NCBI GenBank assembly: GCA_049518415.1
Contig: JBEKRX010000031.1
Span: 2,359-66,358, forward strand
Direction of reading: 5' to 3'
From: Verrucomicrobiota bacterium
GTDB taxonomy: Bacteria > Verrucomicrobiota > Verrucomicrobiia > Limisphaerales > UBA8199
Length of the DNA: 64,000 nt
The notes under the pieces are model-generated. The model saw only the letters and a program-made list of their open reading frames with translations, did not search any database and was not told where the DNA came from. The translations under genes were made by a program, and so were the position numbers. This document shows, in pieces, positions 7,001 to 55,133 of the stretch (the stretch's first letter is position 1; the number at the start of each line of letters is the position of its first letter).

Positions 7001-10000
7001 TTTTTTCGCCCCACAGGGACCAGAGGATGGTATCGTCCACAATCACGAGTGAATAACCATGCCCATCCGTGATCGGGTACCAGCGGTTGTCATAGCTGAA
7101 ATCGAGGATTTTCTCGCCATAAGGGTCCTCGAGCCGGAGGCGTTCGCCGGCGTTGTCCAGTTTCCCCGTGAACTGGCCCGCGACCGGCAAGCCGCTTCCA
7201 TAGCGCAAGGCGAACGCATTCGTGTCGCGAACCAATAGCACACGCGCGCCCGCGGCCAGGTTCGTAATCGCCCCCGCCGCGAAGTCGAACTGCACGCCTT
7301 CGGTGAACCGCACGCCGCGCAAGTCCAGGGGGACGGGGCCGATGTTCCTCAGCTCCAGGAATTCAAACAGTTGCGCGTCGATGTTGGTGTATCCGGGCAG
7401 GGGATCGGGGTTGTAAAAGATTTCCGTAATCCTCAGGAACCGCTGGGCCAGGCTCGGGCTGCCGACATAGCTGTTGCTGTTCACCAGCCGCCCGGTCGGA
7501 TCCGTCAAGACCAGGCTTTCGCCCCACGCGGACAGGTTGCCGTCGTACGGGCCCACCACGAGCCGCTGCTCACCGCCCTTCGGGCTTGCCTGCCGGCTGC
7601 GGAAAGCGTTCACGTCCGGCGAAACAAATATCGCCGACCGCGCCGGGATCACCGTGCCCGGTTTAAACTGAAAGCGCACACCGCCGTCGAGGCGCCAATT
7701 GGAAATGTCCACCGCGTAGCTATTCGGGTTCGTAAGCGAGAGCCATTCCTGCAACGGGTTGCCACTGCTCGGGCGGTACTCGAGACCGTCGATTTGCACC
7801 ACGGCATTCGTCGGCTGGGCCGCGGGGATCTCGCCGCCGTTGGTTACGGACATCGTGCGGAAAAGGAACGTTCGGCGTCCGGGCAGGAACTCGTTCCAAA
7901 TGCGGTTCACAGCCTGCGTGATGGTCTCGCGGGTGCCCCACGTCCCCCATCTGGCCAGGTCGAGCGCGGCGTCGGGGGCGATCTGGTCCCGTAAAGCGAG
8001 GGTCTTCAGGCGGTAGAAATCATTGGTGACCGGCGTGCCGGGCGGCTGGAACAACTCATCCATCAACGTGCGCAAGCGGCGCAGAAACATCTGGCGCGTC
8101 GCGGGTGTGTCGTAGATGGGTGTGAACACGGTGTTGCCGTAGCCAACCGTGATGCCCTGGTTGGTGTAAATGGTTTCGTCGAAATACTCGTAGCACGGTG
8201 TCCCGCAGGTCCAGACCCTGCCAAAACTAAGGTCCACGTCCCAGGGCATCCCCTGCCATTCGCCGGTGCCGTCGCTGTCCCGGTACAGGTAGTAGTTCTT
8301 GAAACAGCAGTCGACGTCCGCGGTGATGATTTTGGCCGCGAGGAAGTCGATGACCTCGGGCACATTGAGATTGTCGAACATGAACGCCTGCCTGGCCGTG
8401 GCGTTCGGCTGGCCCATGCCCGTGATGAGCGCCTGGAGATCGGCAGTCCCCTCGTTTTTCCTGGTTTTCTTCTCCGCACCCGCGACGCTCTCGGCGGAGT
8501 TATACATCTTGTAGAGCGCGCCCTGCGGGTCGAGCCCCAGGCGTTGCAGAAAATCGTCATTGCCGCTTTCCACCACGTTGGCCACGCTGAAAAAGGAGCG
8601 GTTCTGTTGCACGCGCACCGGGAAGGCAAAATGGCTCGGCGCTCCACCATCGCGATACGTTTCATGCGCCAGCACATTGCGCATCTCCGTCTTGTCGGCC
8701 CAGGTGGTCAGCAGGTTCAGATCCCCTACCCGCGGCGCATCGTCCGACCAGCGGAACTTGTAGCCCGGGTTAAAAACGAGATCGTAGCTCTGCTTCGGAA
8801 AGCTGCGCGTCGACTCCCCATGGAGATTAACCCCGATGTTATCGTAGAACTCGCCGTTGAAGAAAAGCGAGCATCGCGCGGTAACGTCGGAGTTCGCGGC
8901 GCTGGGGTTCTGGATGAACCAGTGCAGCACCGGCAGGCGGGAGTTGGTCAGCACGGGATCGAAGACGACCGTTCCGAAGTATTGCGGGCTCCGCGAGGGG
9001 TTTGGAAAGGCCGGGGCCCGTGTCTCCTGGCTGTTCATGTCCGCCGCCACGATGCAATAGCGGACCATCTGCCCGGGGTGTGACGCGCTGGCGGGGATCC
9101 GGGCGCCATACACGGAGTCGCCCGCAGCGCCGTCTCCGTGGTTGCCATCGTCATACATCGGCGTCGTCGACTCGGCCACGTACATGGTGCGATACTTGAG
9201 GGTCACGGATTTGACCGGGCGCAGGCTCGGGGTGACGCGCGCCTGCACCACCAGGTCGTCGTTGTCCCCCGGCACCAACGGGGTGTGGGCGACATCGCTG
9301 ATAATCGGGCCGATGGTCAGCGAACCGGCCCCGTTTGGGGCGCCTGGAGTCGGCACCGTGAAATAAGCGTGCTGCCCTGGGTCCATCCCTGGTTTTGTGC
9401 CAATCAGCTCCGGCAGGACCAGGAAATCCCGGTCCGAGGGACTGGCGTTCAGTCCGTGGATCGCGAGCACATTGGTGCCCGCCACCAGCAAGTCGCGGTT
9501 CCCCGAAAGGTCGATTTCTTCCGCGACGCTGGTCTCCGGCGGGGAGCGTGAAGCTGTGGCCGTGGAATTCCAAACCGCGCCCTCGGAGGGGGGCTGGTCG
9601 ATAGCCGCGGAGAACGTGCAGCCGTCGCACGAATCATCGAGGCTGCCGTCCGTTCCTTTCGGATCGAGCGCAAAATCAAGGTAGTCGCCCGCCTGGATAT
9701 TCATGAGCACGAGATTGGTTTGGAGCCCCGCGGCATCGTTGTAGGCGAGCGTCCAACTGAAGCGCTCGACACCGTTCTGCAAGACGCGCAACGTGGCGCC
9801 GCTCCCGCAGGCGACGTTCTCCTTTGCGAAAGCGATTCGGCAGGTCACCTGGCCCGAGGTCTTGCTGATCCAGCGCCGGATAGGCCAGTGCACGCCACCG
9901 CTGTTAGTGCCGTTCGGCCGCCATCCGCCCAGAGAAATCATGGTCCAGGGCGGGTCGCCCGGCCGGAGCACCCACGCCCCGCCATTCCAGGTCCACTGCG

Positions 10001-21812: not shown

Positions 21813-22910
21813 ATGCTTGCTCACGATCATCTTGCCCTGCAGCTTCTTCGCCTCAAGCCGCCTGAAGAGTGGCTGAATCGAGGCCACAGCTTCTCTTTCC
21901 TGTTTCCGCAGGGGGGCGTCGGAACGTTCGTCTCCGCGGCGATCAATCATCCCCTTGCACCCGGCGATGTCCTTGTTCTCACGGAGGCCCAGGGTGGCAA
22001 GGTCTGCGCCGCGGACGCTGGGGAACTGGTCTTTTGGTGCTTTTCCCTCTGTTTGGAGCATCTGTACCCGCTGTTTGGGAGCAATGAGCTGGCCCTGTTG
22101 CAGCACGTCACCGAATGTTTCAGGACCCCCAGGCTGTATCCCGCTCCCAGCCCCCTTGCCCAGGAATGCCATCGACTGCTGGCGGCTGCCCCGGCCCAAC
22201 ACCACCTGGACCACCGCGGCCAATTGCTGCGGGTCGTGACCGCCATTTTAACCGTGGAATTCAAAGACGCCCGCCGCCAGCGGGGCGGGTTTGTCGGCAC
22301 CGAGGAACACATGATCCACGTGTTCGAGGAGCTTTTAGTGGCTGACATCATGGGTCTTACGGTGGGGGAATTGGCGGACAAATTCCATTGCAGCCCGCGC
22401 CATTTGAACCGCCTCTTTCATCAGCACTTTGGCTTCTCCGTGGCCGCCCTGAGAATGGAGATGCGGTTGATCAAAGCCATTTCCCTGCTGCGAAATCGCG
22501 ACGCCAAGGTCATCCACGTGGCTGAACAATGCGGTTTCAACCACCTGGGTCTTTTCAATTCCTGCTTCAGGCGCCGGTTCGGCACCAGCCCGGGCCAGTG
22601 GCGCGACGGCAATATGCCCGCCCACGCTCACCCCGCAGGACTGATCGAGGGCGACCACCTTTGTCAAATGCGAGCCAACGGTTTGTGCCCCTGGACCGGC
22701 AAGCCCGGCAGCGCAGGACCCACCAGCCCAAAACCCGCCCGCTTGAGCCCCTCCGGGCTCCGGAAGGCGGGCTCCCCCTTCGGTCCGCTGGCGCCCCAAC
22801 CCCGGGACGCATCGGTGAAGGGCGTCATCCGCGCAAAGCTGGAGGCCGCCGTCCGCGCAAAGCTGGAGGCCGCCTCCCGTCCCACATCGGAGAAAGGCCG
22901 TGGTTTATGA
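21813..22910 (+). CDS. AraC-family transcriptional regulator
   Basis: C-terminal dual HTH: HCSPRHLNRLFHQHFGFSVAALRMEMRLIKAISLLRN...IHVAEQCGFNHLGLFNSCFRRRFGTSPGQWR. Cupin-like N-terminal half. A ~95-aa low-complexity tail may be read-through. Confidence 0.8.
   Translation: MLAHDHLALQLLRLKPPEEWLNRGHSFSFLFPQGGVGTFVSAAINHPLAPGDVLVLTEAQGGKVCAADAGELVFWCFSLCLEHLYPLFGSNELALLQHVTECFRTPRLYPAPSPLAQECHRLLAAAPAQHHLDHRGQLLRVVTAILTVEFKDARRQRGGFVGTEEHMIHVFEELLVADIMGLTVGELADKFHCSPRHLNRLFHQHFGFSVAALRMEMRLIKAISLLRNRDAKVIHVAEQCGFNHLGLFNSCFRRRFGTSPGQWRDGNMPAHAHPAGLIEGDHLCQMRANGLCPWTGKPGSAGPTSPKPARLSPSGLRKAGSPFGPLAPQPRDASVKGVIRAKLEAAVRAKLEAASRPTSEKGRGL
22828..22875. repeat. 24-nt tandem duplication (tccgcgcaaagctggaggccgcc x2) giving RAKLEAA-RAKLEAA
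   Basis: 23/24 identical units in the AraC tail, just upstream of the priming transferase start. Confidence 0.9.
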
Positions 22911-22947
22911 ACCGCGCGCGAACACTGCGAATCCAGGAGCACCGCCG

Positions 22948-24348
22948 ATGATTTCCGACCGTCGCCGAGGCATCCAGCACCTGGTCCTGCTCTCCCAGTG
23001 CATCCTGGTGACACTGGCCTTCTGGACCTGGTTCTTCCTCTGCTACCACCTTCCCATCGACCGTGCGGCCATCGGCCGTTACCTCATTTACAATGAATTT
23101 GTTCTCCTGGGCCTGCTCATCGGCTCCGGGCCCTTCCGGGTGGACGCCGGCCTGCACACCCCGAGCTTTGAAGAGATCAACCGCCGCTCCTTCCGGCAGC
23201 TCGGCACCACCCTCTTTTATCTGCTGCTCTACCTGGTCGCCGCCCACGATGCGAATATTTCCCGCCTGTTCTTCTTCACCTTCATTCCGCTGCTTTACCT
23301 GGTTCTCTACGCGACCAACCGCTTCCTGCCGTCCCCCCTCGGCCGCCTGATCTTCCGCCGGGCGCTGCATCAGAAAGTCCTGCTGATGGGGCCGAGACGC
23401 AAAGCGGTCCAGTTGAAACGCTGGCTCGAAGAAAATCAGCACCTGGGTTTGGAGGTGTTGGGGTTGCTGACCGAAGACGCGGACGACGACACCAGCGCTT
23501 CCCTGCCGACGCTCGGGCGGCCCGAGGAGCTCGAGAAGACATTGGCCGCCCCGGGGATCATGAAGGTCATCATGGCCGAGTTTCCCCGCACCAATGGCTT
23601 GGTGCAGCATTACACCAACCTCTGCGAGGGGCGCGGCATCCGGTTGCTCGTCGTGGCGGACCTCGACGAGATCTTCGGCCATCCCCTGGCGGTCTTCGAA
23701 GACCAGGGCAAGTTTTTCATCGGCTTGCGCGAGGAGCCGTTGGAGAACCCAATCAACCGATTTTTCAAACGTTGCGTGGACATCGCGGTGAGTCTGCCCG
23801 TGGTTCTGTTCATTCTGCCGCCGCTGCTTTTGTTTGCGTGGATTTGCCAGCGCCTCCAGTCGCCCGGGCCGCTCTTTTTCGTCCAGCCGCGCGAGGGTTT
23901 CCACAACGAGCCCTTCCCGATTCTCAAATTGCGAACCATGCACGTCGGGGACCCGGCGAATGACACGCTGCCAGACTCGAAGGACGACCCCAGGCTATTC
24001 CGGATCGGCAGCTTCCTGAGGAAATCCAGCCTGGATGAAATGCCCCAATTCTGGAACGTGCTGCGCGGCCACATGAGCGTCGTGGGACCACGACCCCACA
24101 TCATGGCGGATAATCAACGCTTCCTGCGTTTCTACGACAAAGCCTACGTGCGCAGTTTCGTGAAGCCGGGAATTACCGGGCTTGCCCAAGTCAGGGGCTT
24201 TCGCGGCAGGGTTGAAACTTCTGACGAGGGGGCGCACCGCATGGAGTCCGACCTTGAATACCTGGAGAACTGGTCTTTGTGGCTCGATTTCTGGCTGATC
24301 TTCCGCACGGCACTCCAGATGTTCTGCCCACCGAAAGGAGCGGTATGA
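22948..24348 (+). CDS. Polyprenyl-phosphate hexose-1-phosphate transferase (WbaP/EpsB-type priming sugar transferase)
   Basis: Bacterial sugar-transferase core: KRCVDIAVSLPVVLFILPPLL...SPGPLFFVQPREGF...FPILKLRTM...DPRLFRIGSFLRKSSLDEMPQFWNVLRGHMSVVGPRP. The ORF opens at GTG 22900. ATG 22948 (MISDRRRG) was chosen and the start is uncertain. Confidence 0.85.
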   Translation: MISDRRRGIQHLVLLSQCILVTLAFWTWFFLCYHLPIDRAAIGRYLIYNEFVLLGLLIGSGPFRVDAGLHTPSFEEINRRSFRQLGTTLFYLLLYLVAAHDANISRLFFFTFIPLLYLVLYATNRFLPSPLGRLIFRRALHQKVLLMGPRRKAVQLKRWLEENQHLGLEVLGLLTEDADDDTSASLPTLGRPEELEKTLAAPGIMKVIMAEFPRTNGLVQHYTNLCEGRGIRLLVVADLDEIFGHPLAVFEDQGKFFIGLREEPLENPINRFFKRCVDIAVSLPVVLFILPPLLLFAWICQRLQSPGPLFFVQPREGFHNEPFPILKLRTMHVGDPANDTLPDSKDDPRLFRIGSFLRKSSLDEMPQFWNVLRGHMSVVGPRPHIMADNQRFLRFYDKAYVRSFVKPGITGLAQVRGFRGRVETSDEGAHRMESDLEYLENWSLWLDFWLIFRTALQMFCPPKGAV

Positions 24349-25682
24349 AGAGCGGAGGTCGGAAGACAGAGGTCAGAGGTCAGAGGGCGGAAGGCCGAGG
24401 CCGGAAGTCCGAGGTCAGAGGTCAGTGCCTCCGACCTCCGACCTCCGACCTCCGACCTCTGTGCTTTATCTGCGCCGCGCTGGCCGCCGCTGGCGGCAGC
24501 GCTTCGGCCCAGGACGCCCTCCGCCTTTCCCTGAGCTGCCAGTCTGCCGCCTCCCAGCCCCGCCTGGAACTCGAAAACCAACCCTACACCGTCCGTTGGG
24601 GCGATTTGAAGGTCCTCGCCTCCGCTTCGCTGGACGGCGAGTGGAATGACAATGTGAACCTGGCTCACGCCGATCCCCAGCAGGACTTCATCATTCGGCC
24701 GCTGGCCAACTTCGGTGTCTTCTGGCCGGTCACCGAGCTCAATGCCTTGACCTTCTCGCTCGGCGCCGGTTACGAAAAGTTTGTCAGCCACGACCAATAT
24801 GATCGGCCCCTGATCACGCCCGGATCTGCGCTGACCTGGGACATTTTCACCAAGAACCTCCGCATCAATCTCCATGACCAGTTCTCGTACGAGCAGGACC
24901 CGACGGCCTGGGGCGCCATCAGCCGCACCGCCAGGGCCGGCGGATTGGACAATACCCTGGGGGCGATGGCCGTGTGGGACCTGCACGATGTGGTCCTTTC
25001 CTTCGGCTACGACCATTTCAACTTCGTCTCCTCCTCCTCGACCTACGACTACCTGAGCCGCGCTTCCGATTTCCTCCTGCTCCGGGCCGTCTTTAAGGTC
25101 CACCCGGCGGCGACCGCCGGCCTCGAGCTGAGCGGCGGCCCGACCGCTTACGACCAGAAGCTCCTGAGCGACAACGTGACCGCTAGCGCGGGCGGGTTTG
25201 CCGAGTGGCAGGCCACCGAGGTTATCAAACTGCTGGCGAGACTTGGCTTCTATCAATACAGCTTCTCCAACGAAGGCGCGGCTGCCGGGAGCGGCGATCA
25301 ATCCGGCTATTATGCCTCCTTGAACCTGTCCTATCGGCCGAGTCCTAAAATCAGCTACTCGGTGGAGGGCGGTCACGAGGCCTTCATGGGCAACTCCTCC
25401 GCCCTGACCGACCAGTACTACGGCACTGCTTCTGTCAATTGGCGCCTCATTGAGCATATCTCGCTCTCCACCTCGGTTCGGTATGAAACCGCCACACAAC
25501 CCATTGGACCCTTTAGGGACAATTATGACCGCGTGTCCGCCAACCTCAGGTTGTCCTGCCCCATAAAGCAGAAGCTGACCGCCAGCCTGAACTACCGGTA
25601 TTGGCTCAAGACCTCGGGTCTGAGCCAGTTCCTCGATTATGAGCAAAACTGCCTCACCTTGCACCCTGCATACCAGTTTTGA
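24345..25682 (+). CDS. Putative outer-membrane beta-barrel protein of the EPS export module
   Basis: ATGA overlap with the upstream stop. Signal-like LCFICAALAAAGGSASAQD. Alternating beta-strand-like composition and a terminal aromatic residue (...LHPAYQF). The position between the priming GT and the Wza-like gene matches PEP-CTERM-associated OM proteins. The family call is inference. Confidence 0.5.
   Translation: MKSGGRKTEVRGQRAEGRGRKSEVRGQCLRPPTSDLRPLCFICAALAAAGGSASAQDALRLSLSCQSAASQPRLELENQPYTVRWGDLKVLASASLDGEWNDNVNLAHADPQQDFIIRPLANFGVFWPVTELNALTFSLGAGYEKFVSHDQYDRPLITPGSALTWDIFTKNLRINLHDQFSYEQDPTAWGAISRTARAGGLDNTLGAMAVWDLHDVVLSFGYDHFNFVSSSSTYDYLSRASDFLLLRAVFKVHPAATAGLELSGGPTAYDQKLLSDNVTASAGGFAEWQATEVIKLLARLGFYQYSFSNEGAAAGSGDQSGYYASLNLSYRPSPKISYSVEGGHEAFMGNSSALTDQYYGTASVNWRLIEHISLSTSVRYETATQPIGPFRDNYDRVSANLRLSCPIKQKLTASLNYRYWLKTSGLSQFLDYEQNCLTLHPAYQF
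24354..24455. repeat. Heptamer-array inverted repeat (cagaggt x n ... ccgacct x n)
   Basis: The arms gaggtcagaggtcag / ctccgacctccgacctc are imperfectly complementary. It lies in the first ~110 nt of the OM-barrel ORF. Confidence 0.8.
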
Positions 25683-25686
25683 TTCC

Positions 25687-26640
25687 ATGAACGCTCCCCA
25701 AAAACCACGGACCGCGAGGAGTAACCCGCAGAACACGCAGAACACGCGGAATTCAGAACCCTCCCATCTGCCTTTCCGCGTATTCAGCGTATTCCGCGGT
25801 TGCTTCTTCGGCTGCCCCCTGCCTTTCCGCGTATTCAGCGTGTTCTGCGGGTACTTCTTCGGTTGCGCCCTGGTGCTCGCCGCCTTCGGTTCCGCGGCCG
25901 CCGACCCTCGCTTTGCCGACCCCAAGACCTGGTTGCAGGGTCTAAGCAATCAGTGGAACGCCACCTCGCCGGCCCCAACCAATGTCCCTCCGACCAACGC
26001 TGCTCCCCTGACCTCCGACCTCCGACCTCCAACCTCCGCCCCCCCGGCCTCCGGATCTAACACCAACGCCTTCTCCACCATGGACACCCTGGACGACAAG
26101 CACAAGCTGGCCCTGGGCGACCGCCTCAGCTTTCGCATTGTCGAGGACCAGGAAGACCCGAGGGAAACCCTCGCCCCCAAACCGCCTGTCCCCGTCACTG
26201 ATTCAGGCGATGTCGAGGTCCCCTACATCGGGCGGTTTCCGGCCGTCGGCAAGACCTGCAAACAGTTGGCCCGTGAAATCAGAACCGAGCTCGAGAAGAA
26301 ATACTATTACCAGGCCACGGTCATCATCGCCCTCGACCTGGTGACCAGGAGCGGCGGCCGGGTCTATCTCGTGGGCCAAGTGCGGGCCTCCGGGCCCGTT
26401 GAGATTCCGGGCGACGAGGTCTTCACGCTCAGCAAGGCCATCCTGCGCGCCGGCGGCTTCACCGAGTATGCGAACCAGCGCCATGTCAAAGTCACGCGCA
26501 ATGGGCGCGACGCCGCGAACAAAACGCAGACATTCATCGTAAACATGAACGAAGTCTTCGAGAAAGGCAAAACCGAAAGCGACATGAAACTCGAACCCGG
26601 CGACCTGATCTTCGTCCCCCGCCGGCTGGTCATCTTTTAG
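25687..26640 (+). CDS. Polysaccharide export protein (Wza / Poly_export + SLBB type)
   Basis: LALGDRLSFRIVEDQ...VTDSGDVEVPYIGRFPAVGKTCKQLAREIRTELEK.YY...VYLVGQVRASGPVEIPGDEVFTLSKAILRAGGFTEYA...LEPGDLIFVP. The start is uncertain because the first ~60 codons are repeat element copy A. Confidence 0.8.
   Translation: MNAPQKPRTARSNPQNTQNTRNSEPSHLPFRVFSVFRGCFFGCPLPFRVFSVFCGYFFGCALVLAAFGSAAADPRFADPKTWLQGLSNQWNATSPAPTNVPPTNAAPLTSDLRPPTSAPPASGSNTNAFSTMDTLDDKHKLALGDRLSFRIVEDQEDPRETLAPKPPVPVTDSGDVEVPYIGRFPAVGKTCKQLAREIRTELEKKYYYQATVIIALDLVTRSGGRVYLVGQVRASGPVEIPGDEVFTLSKAILRAGGFTEYANQRHVKVTRNGRDAANKTQTFIVNMNEVFEKGKTESDMKLEPGDLIFVPRRLVIF
25724..25867 (-). repeat. 9-mer palindromic element, copy A (inverted relative to B-D, with a partial internal duplication)
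   Basis: ccgcagaacacgcagaacacgcggaattcagaa...ctgcctttccgcgtattcagcgtattccgcggttgcttcttcggctgc, followed by a second ctgcctttccgcgtattcagcgtgttctgcgg. Confidence 0.85.
26008..26040. repeat. Heptamer array cctccga x4 inside the Wza-like ORF (PLTSDLRPPTSAPP)
   Basis: Read directly from the sequence. Same unit as in 24425-24455. Confidence 0.8.
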
Positions 26641-27620: not shown

Positions 27621-29807
27621 ATGCAGCCTCCTAATTCTGACAATTCCGTCTCCGATGTCCAGGGCGCCCTCCCGGCTCGCGCTTTGGTGCCGGGCAACGG
27701 CTACGTCGACGTCCCGGCCTATCCTGTCTCCCCGCCGGCCTTGCGCTTCCGCCGATATCTCATCTTGCTCCGCAAGAAATGGTGGATCGTACTGCTGAGC
27801 CTCTCGCTATGCAGTGTTCTGGCCGCCGCCTACATCTTGTGGTGGCCTGAGACCTACGTCTCCTATGCCCACCTTTGGAGCATGGGCAGAACTGGCCTCC
27901 GCCTTCCCGAGGGCGGCACCTACGAGGAAGACGCGCAAACCTCCGGCGGCACCCAGGTCGAATTGCTCCAGAGCGGCAGGATGAATGAACGCGCTTTTAA
28001 CCGGATCGTGAGCACCCTCCACCTCCCCGTTCCCACCAATTCCGAGGGCCTGCCTGAACCTGTCAAGATCCGCGTCTCCCAGCTCCCCAAGAGCGCCGTC
28101 TTCGAGATCAAGGCCACGGGCCCAAACGACTCCTATACTCGCGCCTTCCTCGATGCCACTATTGATGAGTTCCTCGCCTTCAAACGCGAGATTCGCGCCA
28201 CTTCAGCCGGTGACACCTATACCTCCGTCTCGGAGCAGATCACCAAACAGGAAACCGACCTCAAAAGCGGCCACGACACCCTCACCGCCTACATGCGCGA
28301 CAACAACGTCGCCGTCCTCGAGGAGCAGGCCAAGGCCGCCAGCGCCTATCTCACGCAGCTCCTCGCCGAATTCTCCCAGCTCAAATTGGAGCATCAGCTC
28401 CTCGAGGCCACCTCGACCGAGGGCCTGTGGGCCCTGGCCGGCCTCACCAATGCCCTCGCCGGCGCTCCGGACCCCCGGAGGCTGGCCGACCCGGCCATGC
28501 CCTCCGCCAGCCCGCCCCCCGAATTCCTCGGCGCCCAGCAGGAACTCGAGAAGCTCCGCATCATGCGGACCCGGCTCAGCAAACATCTCCGGCCGGAACA
28601 CCCCAAGATTGTCAAACTGGACGAGGAGATCTCCCGGGGCGAAAAACTGGTCGAATTCCTGAGCAAACAGAGCCGCGATCAGCTTGCCAACGCGAGGCAG
28701 ACCGTCAAGTTGAAGCTCGACCGGATCCAGGAGACGATCAAAGAATGGGAAGCTAAGGTCAACAGCGCCAGTGAACGTATTGCGCAGTACCAGCGCCTTA
28801 AACTCAATGTCGACCGCCTTCAGGGCCTTCACGAGCGCCTGCTCGGCCTCCTCCAGACGGTCGATGTCACGCGCAACCTCGACCAGGAGAACATTACCAT
28901 CCTGGATCGCGCCTCGGCGCCGAGGCGGGACAAGTCCTCGGTCCCATTCGTCCTCGCGCTAGCCATTTTCCTGGGCCTGGGCGGTGGCCTCGGGTTGGTC
29001 TTCCTCGTGGAAGTCTTGAATGACCGAGTCATGTCGCTGGAAGACCTGAACGGGCGATTCAATGAGTGGGTCGTTGGCCAGGTCCCCGAAGTCGGCAACG
29101 CGAAGAAGAAAAAAAGACCCGCCTTGCTGGATGCGGACGACCGCCGGCACATCTTCGCCGAATCTTACCGCAATATGCGCTCGGCCCTGTTCTACGCCGC
29201 AGTCCCGGAAGAAAAGCCCAAGGCCCTGCTGATCACCAGCGCCATCCCCCGTGAAGGCAAATCTACCGTGGCCGCCAACCTGGCCCGGGCCATCGCCTTT
29301 GCCGGCTCCCGGGTCCTGCTCGTGGATGGCGACCTGCGCCGCGGACTCCTGCACGAACTCTTCGAGCTGCCCCAGGAGCCGGGCTTCGCCGACCTGCTCA
29401 CCCAGGGCGGGGACCTGGCCCGATTCGTCGTGCCCACCTCCGTGCCCAACCTCTCCCTCCTGCCCCGGGGCAAACCGGTGGGCAACTCGGGCGAACTCTT
29501 CCTCGGGGCCGGGTGCGACCGGGTGCTGGCGCAAATCCGTGAGCAATACGACTGCGCCATCATCGACAGCATCCCCGTGTTTGCCGCCGATGACACCACC
29601 AGCCTGGCGCCGAAGGTGGACGGCGTGCTCCTGGTGGTGCGTGGCTCTTATGCGGGCAGCCGGACGATCCGGCGGGCCATGGAATTGCTCTACGAACGGC
29701 AGGCCAAAATTATGGGGCTGGTTTTCAACCGCGCCAACAGCGCCTCCCGCTCATACGAATACTACAAATACGCCGATTACTACCACTCAGCGGGGAAGGA
29801 CCACTGA
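27621..29807 (+). CDS. Polysaccharide co-polymerase / BY-tyrosine autokinase (Wzc/GumC-EpsG type)
   Basis: N-terminal Wzz-like TM + coiled-coil region and a second TM. P-loop kinase domain ITSAIPREGKSTVAANLARAIAFAGSRVLLVDGDLRRG. Tyr-rich C-terminus YEYYKYADYYH. Confidence 0.85.
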   Translation: MQPPNSDNSVSDVQGALPARALVPGNGYVDVPAYPVSPPALRFRRYLILLRKKWWIVLLSLSLCSVLAAAYILWWPETYVSYAHLWSMGRTGLRLPEGGTYEEDAQTSGGTQVELLQSGRMNERAFNRIVSTLHLPVPTNSEGLPEPVKIRVSQLPKSAVFEIKATGPNDSYTRAFLDATIDEFLAFKREIRATSAGDTYTSVSEQITKQETDLKSGHDTLTAYMRDNNVAVLEEQAKAASAYLTQLLAEFSQLKLEHQLLEATSTEGLWALAGLTNALAGAPDPRRLADPAMPSASPPPEFLGAQQELEKLRIMRTRLSKHLRPEHPKIVKLDEEISRGEKLVEFLSKQSRDQLANARQTVKLKLDRIQETIKEWEAKVNSASERIAQYQRLKLNVDRLQGLHERLLGLLQTVDVTRNLDQENITILDRASAPRRDKSSVPFVLALAIFLGLGGGLGLVFLVEVLNDRVMSLEDLNGRFNEWVVGQVPEVGNAKKKKRPALLDADDRRHIFAESYRNMRSALFYAAVPEEKPKALLITSAIPREGKSTVAANLARAIAFAGSRVLLVDGDLRRGLLHELFELPQEPGFADLLTQGGDLARFVVPTSVPNLSLLPRGKPVGNSGELFLGAGCDRVLAQIREQYDCAIIDSIPVFAADDTTSLAPKVDGVLLVVRGSYAGSRTIRRAMELLYERQAKIMGLVFNRANSASRSYEYYKYADYYHSAGKDH

Positions 29808-29950
29808 CGGCGGACGAAGGACTACGAGACTACTGACCACTGACCACTAACCACGGACTACTGACTACGGTGGTCCGTGGTCAGTGGTCCGTGGTCCCGT
29901 GGTTCCGTGGTCCGTGGTCCGTGGTCCGTGGTCCGTAGTCCCTTGTCCCT
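29798..29950. repeat. Heptamer-array hairpin (tgaccac/ggactac arm against ggtccgt arm) starting in the wzc stop codon
   Basis: 29851-29870 pairs with 29875-29894 (18 Watson-Crick + 2 G-U pairs, loop tggt). The flanking arrays extend the complementarity. Confidence 0.85.
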
Positions 29951-29953
29951 TAT

Positions 29954-30403
29954 ATGCGAGATTATACGAAAATTGAAGCCTGGAAGCTGGCGGACGACCT
30001 GACGGTGGCAGTTTATTCATGCACCCGGTCTTTCCCTAGGGAAGAATTGTACGGGCTGACAAGCCAAATCCGGCGTGCGGCCTATTCTGTTCCGGCAAAT
30101 ATCGCTGAAGGCTCCTCACGAGAGAGCAAGCGCGATTACCTGCACTTTCTCTACATTGCAAGAGGCTCCTTGACCGAAACGCAGTACTTCATCCATCTCG
30201 CGCGCCGCCTGGGCTATCTATCAGAAGCCGACGCCGAGCAGCTCCACGCGCAGACGAAGTCCACTTTTGCATGCCTGCACGGCCTGATTCGAGCCGTTGA
30301 GAAAGAAACCGGGAGATTAAGCACCGTGGTGGCCGCGATCACCAGTGCCGTCGTCCTCTGCCTTTGGTCCCGTGGTCCGTGGTCCGTGGTCAGTAGTCCG
30401 TAG
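29954..30403 (+). CDS. Four-helix-bundle protein (23S rRNA intervening-sequence protein / Avd-like family)
   Basis: EAWKLADDLTVAVYSCTRSFPREELYGLTSQIRRAAYSVPANIAEGSSRESKRDYLHFLYIARGSLTETQYFIHLARRLGYL is a near-consensus match to this family. The last ~20 codons run into repeat R'. Confidence 0.85.
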   Translation: MRDYTKIEAWKLADDLTVAVYSCTRSFPREELYGLTSQIRRAAYSVPANIAEGSSRESKRDYLHFLYIARGSLTETQYFIHLARRLGYLSEADAEQLHAQTKSTFACLHGLIRAVEKETGRLSTVVAAITSAVVLCLWSRGPWSVVSSP

Positions 30404-30410
30404 TCCCTTC
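30365..30410. repeat. Heptamer array R' (ggtccgt units); direct repeat of 29905-29950
   Basis: 30386-30410 is complementary to 29816-29840 (24 pairs with one bulge on each side). Confidence 0.8.
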
Positions 30411-30419
30411 CGCCCCCCC

Positions 30420-31877
30420 ATGCTCGAGCTCGCGCTCACTCTGCAACTGCTCTTTTTCCTGGCGATCGCCTTGGTTTTCTTCGGTTCACGCCAAGCCTCG
30501 ATTTTTCACCCCTGCACGGTTTACCTGGCCTTCCACGGAATTGTCTTTGTCATTAGGCCCCTTTTTGCTCATTACCTTCACTTCGACCATTCCTGGCAAT
30601 ATATGGCCTTCTGGCCCAGGGATGAGGATTGGCTCAAGACGCTTGTTGTTACCTCATTAGCCTTGGGGGTATTTGTCACCGCCTGTCTCTCCGCTTCTCG
30701 GGGCCTGCCCAGCCAAGTGGGGCCTGCTGCAACCCTGCCTACGCCCGAACTCAGAACCGCGTTCCTGCTCACCGGTGCTCTGCTCGCCCCATTGCTCGCT
30801 TATTCTATTTATGCGACCAGACACGGAATTGCCGGTGAGCGTGTCGGCGCCGTTTACATCATGACGGGCACCAGCGGTTATGTGAACGACGCTCAGCACA
30901 TGGCCGTCCCACTGCTGGCGATTTTCGTCTGGGCTTTTGCCTTTAGGTGGTGGACCCTCGTTCCGGTCACATTGTATCTTGCCTACCGCGCCTGGTTTGG
31001 ATGGTCCCGCTGGACGATAATAATCTGCGTGTTCATGCTGTTTTTGGTTTATTGCTGGCACCAGCGCCGCAAGTGGCTGCCCGTTCGCTTGCTTGCCCTC
31101 TTGCTGCCCCTGTTCATCCTTTTCAACTGGCTAGGTGACAACCGGGATGTATTTAAGAGCCTTCTCCAAGGTCAAGAACCAGCTCCCAAAGTCCTGTCCG
31201 GCAACGGCAGCGCCGCGGAAAAGATCCGGACCAAGCTCGACAAACACGACCTCGCCAGTTTCGACTTTCTGACTTACGTATTGGCTGCGGTTCCCGAACG
31301 AACCGGAACCTACAATTACGGTCTTCAGTACCTGCAGTTATTCACCGAACCCATCCCTCGGAAACTATGGAAGGGGAAACCGGCCGGCGCGCCCTTCGGG
31401 CGGCTGAACCTCAATGCCTATGGCAATTTCCTCGGCTTGACGGTCACTCTCCTGGGGGACGGGTGGCTTAGTGGCGGCTGGGTCGGCTTGGTCCTGACCG
31501 TCGGGGCGGCGGGATGGGCCTTGGGACGCGCTCACCGTTGGTTCTCGCGCCACCAGGCCAATGCTTTTATCGCCTTCTCGTACTGCGGGATTTTGGCAGC
31601 GACCATTCAGCTCTATCGCGACGGCGGCATTTCCGTTTTCAAATTCCTCCTTTGGCTCCTCCTGCCCATCCTCATCTGGAGGGCGGTGTATCGGACGATG
31701 AACGCGCAATCCCCGTCCGTGTCTGCAAGCCCTGCAACCGGCGCCTCTTACCCTCTCCCTCTGCGCTACCGCCCTGGGCTCTCCGCCCCCGTCCGCTCCT
31801 ACCGCGGACGCCCGCGGCTCAGTTGGAGAAGAATTCAACGCCGCTGGCCGCCACCCGCCCGATGGCGCCAGGTGTGA
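30420..31877 (+). CDS. Polytopic membrane protein, putative Wzy-type repeat-unit polymerase
   Basis: ~10-12 hydrophobic segments and a large loop region. It sits in a locus that otherwise lacks a polymerase. ATG 30420 (MLELALTLQLLFFLAIALVFF) was chosen over the ORF-track start 30345, which lies in the repeat. The C-terminal ~55 aa look like read-through. Confidence 0.5.
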   Translation: MLELALTLQLLFFLAIALVFFGSRQASIFHPCTVYLAFHGIVFVIRPLFAHYLHFDHSWQYMAFWPRDEDWLKTLVVTSLALGVFVTACLSASRGLPSQVGPAATLPTPELRTAFLLTGALLAPLLAYSIYATRHGIAGERVGAVYIMTGTSGYVNDAQHMAVPLLAIFVWAFAFRWWTLVPVTLYLAYRAWFGWSRWTIIICVFMLFLVYCWHQRRKWLPVRLLALLLPLFILFNWLGDNRDVFKSLLQGQEPAPKVLSGNGSAAEKIRTKLDKHDLASFDFLTYVLAAVPERTGTYNYGLQYLQLFTEPIPRKLWKGKPAGAPFGRLNLNAYGNFLGLTVTLLGDGWLSGGWVGLVLTVGAAGWALGRAHRWFSRHQANAFIAFSYCGILAATIQLYRDGGISVFKFLLWLLLPILIWRAVYRTMNAQSPSVSASPATGASYPLPLRYRPGLSAPVRSYRGRPRLSWRRIQRRWPPPARWRQV

Positions 31878-50726: not shown

Positions 50727-50771
50727 AAGAGCCCTGAGGGCCGCCGCGCTCTCAGGGCTCTTGCGTTTATT
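50727..50771 (+). terminator. Terminator-like hairpin after the TPR gene
   Basis: aagagccctgag-N12-ctcagggctctt followed by gcgtttatt (weak U-tract). Confidence 0.4.
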
Positions 50772-50780
50772 CGGCGAGCT

Positions 50781-50873
50781 GCAGCCGAAGAAGGAACCGC
50801 AGAATACGCTGAATACGCGGAAAGGCAGATGGCGGAGTTCTGAATTCTGCATATTCGGCGTATTCTGCGGTTC
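50781..50873 (+). repeat. 9-mer palindromic element, copy B
   Basis: gaaccgcagaatacgctgaatacgcgg ... ctgcatattcggcgtattctgcggttc. The outer 16 bp are perfectly complementary. Confidence 0.9.
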
Positions 50874-51179: not shown

Positions 51180-51283
51180 CGCAACCGAAGAAGCAACCGC
51201 AGAATACGCTGAATACGCGGAAAGGCAGACGGTCCCGATTCGGAATCGGGAAATTCCGCGTATTCCGCGTGTTCTGCGGTTCG
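51180..51283 (+). repeat. 9-mer palindromic element, copy C
   Basis: ccgcaaccgaagaagcaaccgcagaatacgctgaatacgcggaaaggcaga...ccgcgtattccgcgtgttctgcggttc. Confidence 0.9.
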
Positions 51284-52348: not shown

Positions 52349-52443
52349 CCGCAACCGAAGAAGCAACCGCGGAATACGCTGAATACGCGGAAAGGCAGAC
52401 AGCGGAGTTCTGAATTCCGCGTATTCCGCGTGTTCTGCGGTTC
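52349..52443 (+). repeat. 9-mer palindromic element, copy D (between convergent PEP-CTERM genes)
   Basis: ccgcaaccgaagaagcaaccgcggaatacgctgaatacgcggaaaggcagacagcggagttctgaattccgcgtattccgcgtgttctgcggttc. Confidence 0.9.
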
Positions 52444-54818: not shown

Positions 54819-54862
54819 TGTGGAGGAGGGGAAAAGGTCTGAACTTTGAACGTTGAACGGGA
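54819..54862. repeat. Direct repeat e1 (gtggaggaggggaaaaggtctgaactttgaacgttgaacggg)
   Basis: Pairs with 54960-55012. Ends in a 7-mer array. Confidence 0.75.
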
Positions 54863-54959: not shown

Positions 54960-55012
54960 GTGGAGGATGGGAAAATGTCTGACCTTTGACCTCTGACCTC
55001 TGATCACTGAAC
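54960..55012. repeat. Direct repeat e2 (gtggaggatgggaaaatgtctgacctttgacctctgacctctgatcactgaac)
   Basis: Its tgacctc heptamer array is the reverse complement of the unit in 24368-24385. Confidence 0.75.
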
Positions 55013-55133
55013 TCCCAAGTGCTTCTGCGCCAATTGGTTAAGAGTTCCAGCGGCGGCGCGCGGGAATCGGCCGGCGGAGCTTCCCATGGAGGGCTTTTCC
55101 TGAACTGGCAAGGCACCTGCGTAAGGGGGCCTC

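Follow-up and report, generated by a model that had tools for sequence, protein, structure and literature searches.

The 64,000-nucleotide (nt) stretch of Verrucomicrobiota DNA considered here (contig JBEKRX010000031.1; hereafter the window, with L-numbers such as L089 or L128 designating comparison loci and contigs) contains, between the genes wzc and wzy of a polysaccharide operon, a small gene of the 23S rRNA intervening sequence (IVS) protein family which is flanked by arrays of heptamers. The segment 29776-30419 is best explained overall as a helix-45-type IVS cassette that was inserted at the wzc-wzy junction, and we assign this reading a probability of about 0.7. The first-pass annotation, drawn up from the letters of the DNA, had proposed an IVS-like cassette inside an mRNA. 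This proposal is supported by three independent results: the anatomy common to the gene's homologues across dozens of unrelated neighbourhoods, the existence of genuine rRNA IVSs of the same build (helix-45 IVSs from metagenomes and the published IVS of Coxiella burnetii), and an empty site in a related locus.

Structure of the cassette and of its insertion site

The upstream host gene (27621-29807), like all features of the cassette on the forward strand, is predicted to encode a Wzc-like chain-length regulator of 728 amino acids (aa) with a tyrosine-kinase-type P-loop, based on Pfam hits to GNVR, Wzz, AAA_31, CbiA and ParA with weak scores, some of them below the curated cut-offs. Its TGA stop codon (29805-29807) lies inside the left array L (29798-29870), which consists of ten in-phase GACNNNN heptamers of the GACCACT and GACTACG types and had been delimited correctly in the first-pass annotation. 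The tetraloop TGGT (29871-29874) of a local hairpin separates L from R (29875-29950), an extra array of the right-hand type, (GTGGTCC)n, between L and the open reading frame (ORF). The latter (29954-30403; 149 aa) matches the profiles 23S_rRNA_IVP and TIGR02436 and is referred to as the IVP gene in the following. Its last 13 codons are covered by the right array R' (30365-30410, approximately six NNNNGTC heptamers), which also provides its TAG stop codon (30401-30403). The ATG of the downstream host gene (30420-31877), which encodes a Wzy-type O-antigen/exopolysaccharide (EPS) polymerase of 485 aa, comes 10 nt after the end of R'. Pfam returned zero matches for the protein at the wzy position itself; its homologues carry PF14296, and some of them are named O-antigen polymerase Wzy. 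The left array of the cassette starts at the upstream host stop, the right array gives the stop of the cassette gene and ends at the downstream host start, and the whole cassette is co-oriented with the host operon and fitted between the host's stop and start codons.

The motif GACN4GACN4GAC occurs 18 times in the window, compared with 0.58 expected occurrences. The distal 45 nt of R (29900-29944) are repeated directly in R' (30365-30409) with 93% identity, which agrees with the earlier description of R' as a direct repeat of the end of the upstream array. The ORF had also been thought to be lower in GC than its flanks, and its core indeed has a GC content of 54.5% (61.5% at third codon positions, GC3) versus 63.0% (GC3 81.1%) in wzc and 61.1% in the whole window. 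No second IVP gene was found within the 64-kb window, and a search with the PADLOC models of known anti-phage defence matched 0 families.

Evidence for an insertion is provided by L089, the closest relative of the downstream gene, in which Wzy is 82% and the C-terminus of Wzc 75% identical to the window proteins. In a global alignment, positions 29667-29775 of the window are homologous to 380-488 of L089 and positions 30420-30520 to 588-688. Between these blocks the window contains 644 nt (29776-30419, forward strand) and L089 an unrelated spacer of 99 nt; the 77-nt wzc-wzy intergenic spacer of L089 is free of IVP genes and of heptamers. An orthologous locus in which wzc is directly followed by wzy, proposed earlier as a check of the cassette, therefore exists, and together with the array-ORF-array anatomy common to the homologues it supports the view of a cassette with repeat-defined ends which was gained or lost. 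As the homology stops at 29775, the last approximately ten codons of the window wzc and its TGA were supplied by the inserted segment. The cassette has inverted array termini; no target-site duplication is visible at this filled/empty pair, the flanks of which are about 20% diverged, and no transposase or recombinase was detected in or beside the cassettes.

The four-helix-bundle protein

Judged by its sequence, the encoded protein is a member of the PF05635/TIGR02436 family (23S rRNA IVS protein, S23p). The match to PF05635 (E 6.6e-37, 126.4 bits at a cut-off of 33.8) extends over profile positions 2-104 of 106, TIGR02436 scores 124.5 bits (cut-off 24), and the structure 2gsc (Xcc0516) in the PDB is matched with an E-value of 5.5e-26. 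The family assignment of the first-pass annotation thus holds; the length of about 130 aa given there falls short of the 149 aa found. An AlphaFold2 model of moderate confidence (predicted local distance difference test score 65.6) places helices at residues 2-24, 29-53, 59-85 and 91-117. They are followed, over residues 121-149, by a fifth helix of hydrophobic character (121-139) and by the tail WSRGPWSVVSSP, which is coded by R'; the shorter homologues compared (118-128 aa, such as L016 and L040) lack this C-terminal hydrophobic helix. The top Foldseek matches of the model are 2gsc (TMt 0.81, root-mean-square deviation 2.1), 2rld (BT_0352) and the Avd structures 4dwl and 8ub7, and the solved relatives 2gsc, 2rld and 4dwl are listed with five chains each.

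The protein has thousands of homologues, and the family comprises 22,069 representatives at 50% identity (E <= 0.001). The best 120 homologues are 73-85% identical and have the tail coded by the right array in common; the start MRDYTK is invariant among 25 homologues.

The similarity to Avd raises the question of whether the gene is an orphan accessory gene of a diversity-generating retroelement (DGR). Avd (PDB 4DWL, 8UB7) shares the four-helix-bundle fold with the window protein model (Foldseek TM approximately 0.7) and forms a pentameric barrel which binds an RNA stem-loop beside its own gene, and weak matches to bAvd (PF22296, E 8.5e-4) and to the Avd equivalog NF033474 were obtained. The latter match, at 24.7 bits, is far under the cut-off of 80; unlike a DGR, the window locus has no reverse transcriptase, the neighbours being methyltransferase, glycosyltransferase and wzy genes, and the repeat analysis of the window found no repeat of the template/variable type. 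The identification as a DGR Avd was rejected on these grounds. The strong hairpin after the wzc stop might instead be taken for an intrinsic terminator or attenuator between wzc and wzy. However, the sequence directly after R reads cccttgtcccttatatg, with no U-tract following the hairpin, and a scan of the cassette (29798-30410) for promoter and terminator patterns detected neither, for which reason the terminator was rejected as well. Both explanations, orphan Avd and terminator, appear highly improbable.

Flanking arrays as a property of the gene family

The scan of homologous loci included one genome per species and resulted in 79 loci, mostly from Verrucomicrobiota and to a lesser extent from Planctomycetota, Victivallales, Omnitrophota, Elusimicrobia and Bacteroidia. 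Both arrays were detected in 67 of the 74 intact homologues of these 79 species. The situation named earlier as speaking against a cassette, namely the same ORF without complementary flanks in related genomes, is not what most of the relatives show. GAC-N4-GAC pairs occur on average 3.17 times in the 150 nt before the ORF and GTC-N4-GTC pairs 2.9 times in the 200 nt from codon 115 onwards, versus a background of 0.06 per 150 nt in either case, and the opposite array orientation is near zero in the family loci; this strict period-7 scoring misses arrays of period 8-9 or of degenerate units. RNA duplexfold applied to whole flanks of 150 or 200 nt was uninformative, large energies being obtained for the controls as well owing to long chains of interior loops, and ungapped complementarity was scored instead. 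By this measure the inverted complementarity of the flanks exceeds that of all ten shuffles in 60 of 75 loci (direct-repeat control: 9 of 75).

The arrays are also placed in a consistent manner. Between the end of the left array and the ATG the median distance is 13 nt, the upstream host stop lies within approximately -20 to +10 nt of the first GAC, and the downstream host start is found approximately -30 to +27 nt from the end of the right array. The cassette gene ends with TAG in 42 of 74 homologues, its stop codon being inside the right array in 37 of 67. Five units are the most frequent arm length on both sides (28/75 and 26/75 loci), and this mode persists when two recurrent insertion sites are left out. 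For the best stem the median length is 31 nt and the identity 84%, with GAC mismatched in 2-4% and unit position 4 in 44% of cases. Furthermore, the two arms of a locus co-vary in the four variable bases of their units: the complement of a left-arm unit is found in its own locus at a rate of 0.347 compared with 0.087 in other loci, a value reached in 0 of 5000 permutations. An additional right-type array before the ORF, as R in the window, is rare; only 4 of 76 loci had at least two GTC-period-7 pairs before the ORF, and such arrays were observed in L009, L019, L022 and L031. As far as can be judged from these comparisons of sequence, the flanking arrays belong to the gene family and not to this particular genome, and the general unit is (GACNNNN)~5, approximately 13 nt, the four-helix-bundle ORF and (NNNNGTC)~5.

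Inverted arrays of 20-42 nt also surround distant homologues (30-55% identity) on plasmids of Nostoc, Calothrix and Trichormus and on IMG/VR contigs, in 10 of 13 cases. These arrays use other 7-8-mers (GGGAACA, AGGGTGT, TCGGCNN, GAGGCNT), their arms still being complementary. In the IMG/VR contig L109 the arm order is reversed, (AGTCTGT)n-ORF-(ACAGACT)n, with 94% complementarity over 33 nt, and in L108, L109 and L115, all from IMG/VR, a promoter-like sequence of the TTGACA...TATAAT type lies between the left array and the ATG.

A census of array pairs in 0.79 Mb revealed 94 GAC>GTC pairs, of which 74 enclose an IVP gene at a spacing of 370-500 nt and 15 are ORF-less hairpins with loops of 3-92 nt, composed of the same units as the cassettes of their own genome; the remaining 5 are of other kinds. 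The census bears on the possibility of a mere coincidence, i.e. that a generic intergenic hairpin of tandem oligomers, similar to repetitive extragenic palindromic (REP) or short tandemly repeated repetitive (STRR) sequences and made by slippage, happens to lie beside an unrelated small gene. Hairpins of oligomers without an IVP gene are indeed present in the window (24355-24459, and 9-mers at 50798-50869, 51198-51278 and 52368-52439), and heptamer repeats are over-represented in some bacteria (PMC4692102). A chance neighbourhood is nevertheless contradicted by the array counts, the complementarity of the flanks and the tight spacing of the pairs enclosing IVP genes, and the association recurs across phyla and with different unit sequences. 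We have rejected this explanation, which has a very small probability.

Two array pairs do not conform to the general unit. In L004 (3026-3400) a GAC/GTC array pair 306 nt apart is located inside an ORF of 791 aa, where it is read in frame as a low-complexity linker and may represent an ORF-less element tolerated inside coding sequence. In L053 (7449-8968) a GAC/GTC array pair comes after a degenerate IVP-like ORF (7449-7742) and encloses two overlapping small ORFs (8135-8395 and 8361-8807) in a toxin-antitoxin-like arrangement; this would be an unusual cargo.

Relationship to the intervening sequences of 23S rRNA

According to Warrier et al. 2016 (PMC4990558), the helix-45 IVS of Coxiella burnetii contains an S23p ORF and is bounded by a terminal stem of 28 bp in which RNase III cleaves. 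GACAGAT heptamers in tandem, two or three in number and varying between strains, directly precede the S23p start (PMC4990558). Although the rRNA IVSs and their S23p protein have been known for more than 25 years, the function of S23p and the spread of the IVSs are not established (PMC4990558).

Metagenome contigs were scanned for the conserved 3' flank of 23S helix 45 together with a GAC-type array; the search pattern demanded the array on one side, and the other array, the ORF and the rRNA context were left free. The scan yielded 16 contigs. According to Rfam, L128 comprises a complete 16S-tRNA-tRNA-23S-5S operon, the 23S gene of which contains (GACAGAN)n-IVP ORF-(NTCTGTC)n between CCGAAGCTGCGG and GGTAGGGGAGCGTTC. 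In 8 of the 16 contigs, an insert of 440-552 nt between CCGAAGCYGCGG and GGTAGGGGAGCGTTC consists of (GACAGAN)~5 or GACAATT units, an IVP homologue and a complementary array, and the homologues share 27-39% identity with the window protein (E down to 2e-16). The other eight contigs contain shorter inserts with no IVP match, seven of which are array hairpins of 84-166 nt; the upstream flank of L125 could not be located. Since the inserts in helix 45 of the rRNA are built as array-ORF-array, the window cassette has the anatomy of a genuine rRNA IVS.

The likeness concerns several features. The rRNA IVSs of Leptospira and of helix 45 in C. burnetii encode the same protein family, PF05635, as the window ORF. 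GACNNNN heptamers are positioned directly before the ORF start (GACAGAT in Coxiella, PMC4990558; L120, L126, L128 and L130), and a complementary array after the stop results in a terminal stem of approximately 28-35 bp. Short forms without the ORF, a strain-variable number of heptamers and a GC content below that of the host are likewise shared. In contrast to the rRNA IVSs, which occupy helix tips of 23S (or 16S) rRNA (helix 9, 25 or 45), the window cassette is situated between two cistrons that encode proteins. The host gene and the cassette ORF both receive their stop codons from its arrays, and its extra right-type array gives rise to alternative pairings. No rRNA match was obtained in an Rfam search of 29000-31000, which returned only sub-threshold matches to generic microRNA hairpins. 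Excision by RNase III is a demonstrated feature of the rRNA IVSs only. Taken together, the comparison suggests that rRNA IVS elements also colonise ordinary operons.

Genomic contexts and turnover

The 79 loci have varied neighbourhoods, 75 Pfam families being represented upstream. Recurrent sites are found between a MaoC dehydratase and an aldo-keto reductase, between Wzm and Wzt, and between the proteins E and F of the type II secretion system (T2SS), and in several loci two or three copies occur within approximately 10 kb, as in L096 with the order wza-wzc-IVP-wzm-IVP-wzt. Cassettes are conspicuously frequent in O-antigen/EPS clusters (L095, L096, L101-L106; approximately 25 of the 79 species loci), where they are located between wzm and wzt, after wzc or between glycosyltransferase genes, sometimes twice per cluster. 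As far as the sampled loci allow, this frequency may reflect either a genuine preference or the way in which close homologues were sampled.

The recurrence in polysaccharide loci would also be expected if the cassette were a regulatory module of benefit to the host which sets how wzc and wzy, or wzm, wzt and similar gene pairs, compare in expression or stability, as processed intercistronic hairpins do. The arrangement Wzm-IVP-Wzt in nine loci, the two copies in L096 and the sites between glycosyltransferases in L095 and L101 would suit such a function, as would the conservation of the MaoC site over approximately ten species and the fact that the upstream stop and the downstream start meet at the base of the stem. 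The same cassette is, however, present in unrelated contexts (release factor, T2SS, pyrF, rRNA), the close relative L089 manages without it, and the low GC3 and the strain-polymorphic array length fit an insertion better than a tuned regulator. We therefore regard a primarily regulatory role as rather improbable.

The arrays appear to change faster than the gene. Between two strain variants of the nearest homologue, the ORF of 450 nt differs by one base, the right array by an indel of 53 nt and the left array by rearrangements of units. Among 21 contigs with a protein identical to that of the window no sequence polymorphism was found in the arrays. Three assemblies with the identical protein (L085, L086 and L088) stop inside the upstream array, 46-48 nt before the ORF, and such cassettes may accordingly fragment metagenome assemblies.

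Pairing of the arrays

The inner part of L (29850-29870) pairs with 29875-29895 of R across the 4-nt loop. The first-pass annotation had recognised this stem and had described it as 20 nt with 18 Watson-Crick and two G-U pairs; a hand count gives 21 bp, 19 Watson-Crick and two G-U. The outer 25 nt of L, for which an almost perfect pairing with 30386-30410 had been proposed, do form this stem with R', with one bulge, and it is included in the minimum free energy (MFE) fold. The L x R' duplex has an energy of -79.9 kcal/mol and the whole local L x R hairpin one of -105.7 kcal/mol. For the region 29780-30430 the MFE fold (-266 kcal/mol; z = -3.9 versus shuffles) is the hybrid of both pairings that had been put forward, and it beats a fold with the local hairpin only by 17 kcal/mol. 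The window copy is thus a composite in which L can fold locally on R, or its outer half can close round the ORF onto R'.

Several points weigh against the preferred reading of an IVS-type cassette. The local L:R hairpin is stronger than L:R' and would form first in transcription, and therefore the ORF may not be enclosed in the window copy. The family loci are partly non-independent, some of them being orthologous sites, and among the helix-45 contigs the presence of an array on one side follows by construction from the demand for a GAC array next to the 23S flank. In a wobble test, 75 G-U and 110 A-C mismatches were counted in the stems on the sense strand; there is no G-U excess and hence no sign that a helix of sense-strand RNA is under selection, and the complementarity could be kept at the DNA level or by the generation of the arrays. 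Finally, the arms of the orthologues at the MaoC site share GACNACN and are not colinearly complementary at the variable positions, which makes some of the stems weak.

Due to the missing G-U excess, the arms at the MaoC site and the stronger local hairpin, a role of the arrays at the DNA level stays a live rival. In such a mobile element the arrays would be terminal inverted repeats of iterated sites bound by a protein on DNA or single-stranded DNA, a host or trans-acting recombinase or polymerase would move the cassette, the ORF-less hairpins would resemble MITEs (miniature inverted-repeat transposable elements), and the folding of the RNA would be incidental. Filled and empty sites, the diverse contexts, ORF-less hairpins of the same units in the same genomes and the rapid turnover of the arrays are all consistent with it; moreover, GAC is nearly never mismatched and the spacer positions vary, as would be expected for a protein recognition site. 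MITEs, REP sequences and bacterial interspersed mosaic elements (BIMEs) similarly are short inverted-repeat elements at gene junctions with ORF-bearing (autonomous) and hairpin-only forms. Unlike these, the cassettes have no transposase or RAYT, the one filled/empty pair shows no visible target-site duplication, and their arms are tandem 7-mer arrays rather than unique sequence. In addition, the ORF is always read from the GAC arm towards the GTC arm in this clade and runs in the same direction as the upstream gene in at least 68 of 78 loci, and the fit to stop and start codons as well as to rRNA helix tips represents constraints on transcripts and not on DNA. A DNA-level element consequently seems unlikely, and the IVS-like cassette is preferred.

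Proposed mechanism and implications

If the cassette behaves as the rRNA IVSs do, its arms would pair in the operon transcript and RNase III would cut the stem, which typically measures approximately 31 bp and has a mismatch recurring behind every GAC. The cut would release the cassette RNA and part the wzc from the wzy message, so that the insertion would be tolerated. With no promoter pattern of its own, the cassette gene would presumably be expressed by read-through.

The protein is expected to form a pentameric ring, as in its solved relatives. In the DGR ribonucleoprotein all five Avd protomers contact the RNA stem-loop via flipped-out bases, and an RNA duplex involves the 3' end of avd (bioRxiv 10.1101/2023.10.23.563531). 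By analogy, the pentamer would bind the periodic stem or array of five units, and a ring that reads one unit per protomer would agree with the mode of five units, the invariance of GAC and the periodicity of the mismatches.

More speculatively, and with low confidence, all IVS elements may constitute one superfamily of array-flanked cassettes which occupy rRNA helix tips and the stop/start junctions of operons, in which an Avd-like pentamer reads a five-unit stem at one unit per protomer, and in which the ribonucleoprotein, perhaps with a trans-acting reverse transcriptase as in DGRs, mediates the spread. Its ORF-less decay products might then be behind much of the excess of intergenic heptamer repeats (STRR, GGGAATC etc.). 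An over-representation of heptamer repeats between genes, often in convergent pairs, is known from Xanthomonas, Nostoc and Beggiatoaceae (PMC4692102, PMC4679880). Named examples are the cyanobacterial STRR, GGGGA(C/T)T of Nostoc, GGGAATC of Xanthomonas (often in convergent pairs) and TAACTGA of Beggiatoaceae. They resemble the arrays described here in being intergenic tandem 7-mers near the 3' end of the upstream ORF, often in inverted pairs capable of forming stem-loops and of strain-variable length (PMC4692102, PMC4679880), and the IVP genes on the plasmids of Nostoc, Calothrix and Trichormus are flanked by arrays of such a heptamer type. A term search of PMC4692102 and PMC4679880 returned no reference to an S23 or four-helix-bundle gene.

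Four-helix-bundle genes are abundant outside rRNA, including positions between cas genes (PMC3936711). In the open-access literature searched, rRNA IVSs, the Coxiella heptamers, non-rRNA four-helix-bundle genes and heptamer repeats were not linked together, and no paper describing array-flanked four-helix-bundle genes outside rRNA or at cistron junctions was found, which is not proof of novelty. The results point to the rRNA IVS as one habitat within a far larger family of elements and, in view of the 22,069 family representatives, the phenomenon is potentially very widespread. The anatomy of the element is strict and measurable, with approximately five heptamers per arm, complementary arms and a position fitted between a stop and a start codon. 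It opens hypotheses on the processing of operon mRNAs by RNase III, on a pentamer that reads a periodic stem and on a common origin of heptamer microsatellites. For genome annotation it implies that arrays beside these genes should not be taken as host coding sequence or as CRISPR-like. Proteins of the 23S_rRNA_IVP type have been reported to be associated with cas loci and CRISPR arrays (PMC3936711; PMC10910872); IVP-flanking arrays scored as repeat arrays might add to such associations.

Other repeats in the window

Several other repeats are present elsewhere in the window. The degenerate heptamer hairpin at 24355-24459 has the opposite arm order, (GAGGTCN)n followed by (GACCTCN)n, contains no IVP gene and is located at the junction of the ORF 22900-24348 and the next gene on the forward strand. 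A lone (GACCTCC)4 run is present at 26010-26038. A second family of hairpins is composed of tandem 9-mers (CGCAGAATA.../...TATTCTGCG) and comprises, besides the three copies named above (50798-50869, 51198-51278 and 52368-52439), a copy at 25723-25872; the copies at 50798-50869 and 51198-51278 lie within a direct repeat of approximately 400 nt which starts near 50740 and 51140. Finally, heptamer runs of the types (TGAACGT)n and (TCTGACC)n were detected at 54840-54859 and 54978-55014, respectively. Each of them is preceded by a similar ggaggaNgggaaaaNgtc motif, which suggests a repeat unit of approximately 140 nt.

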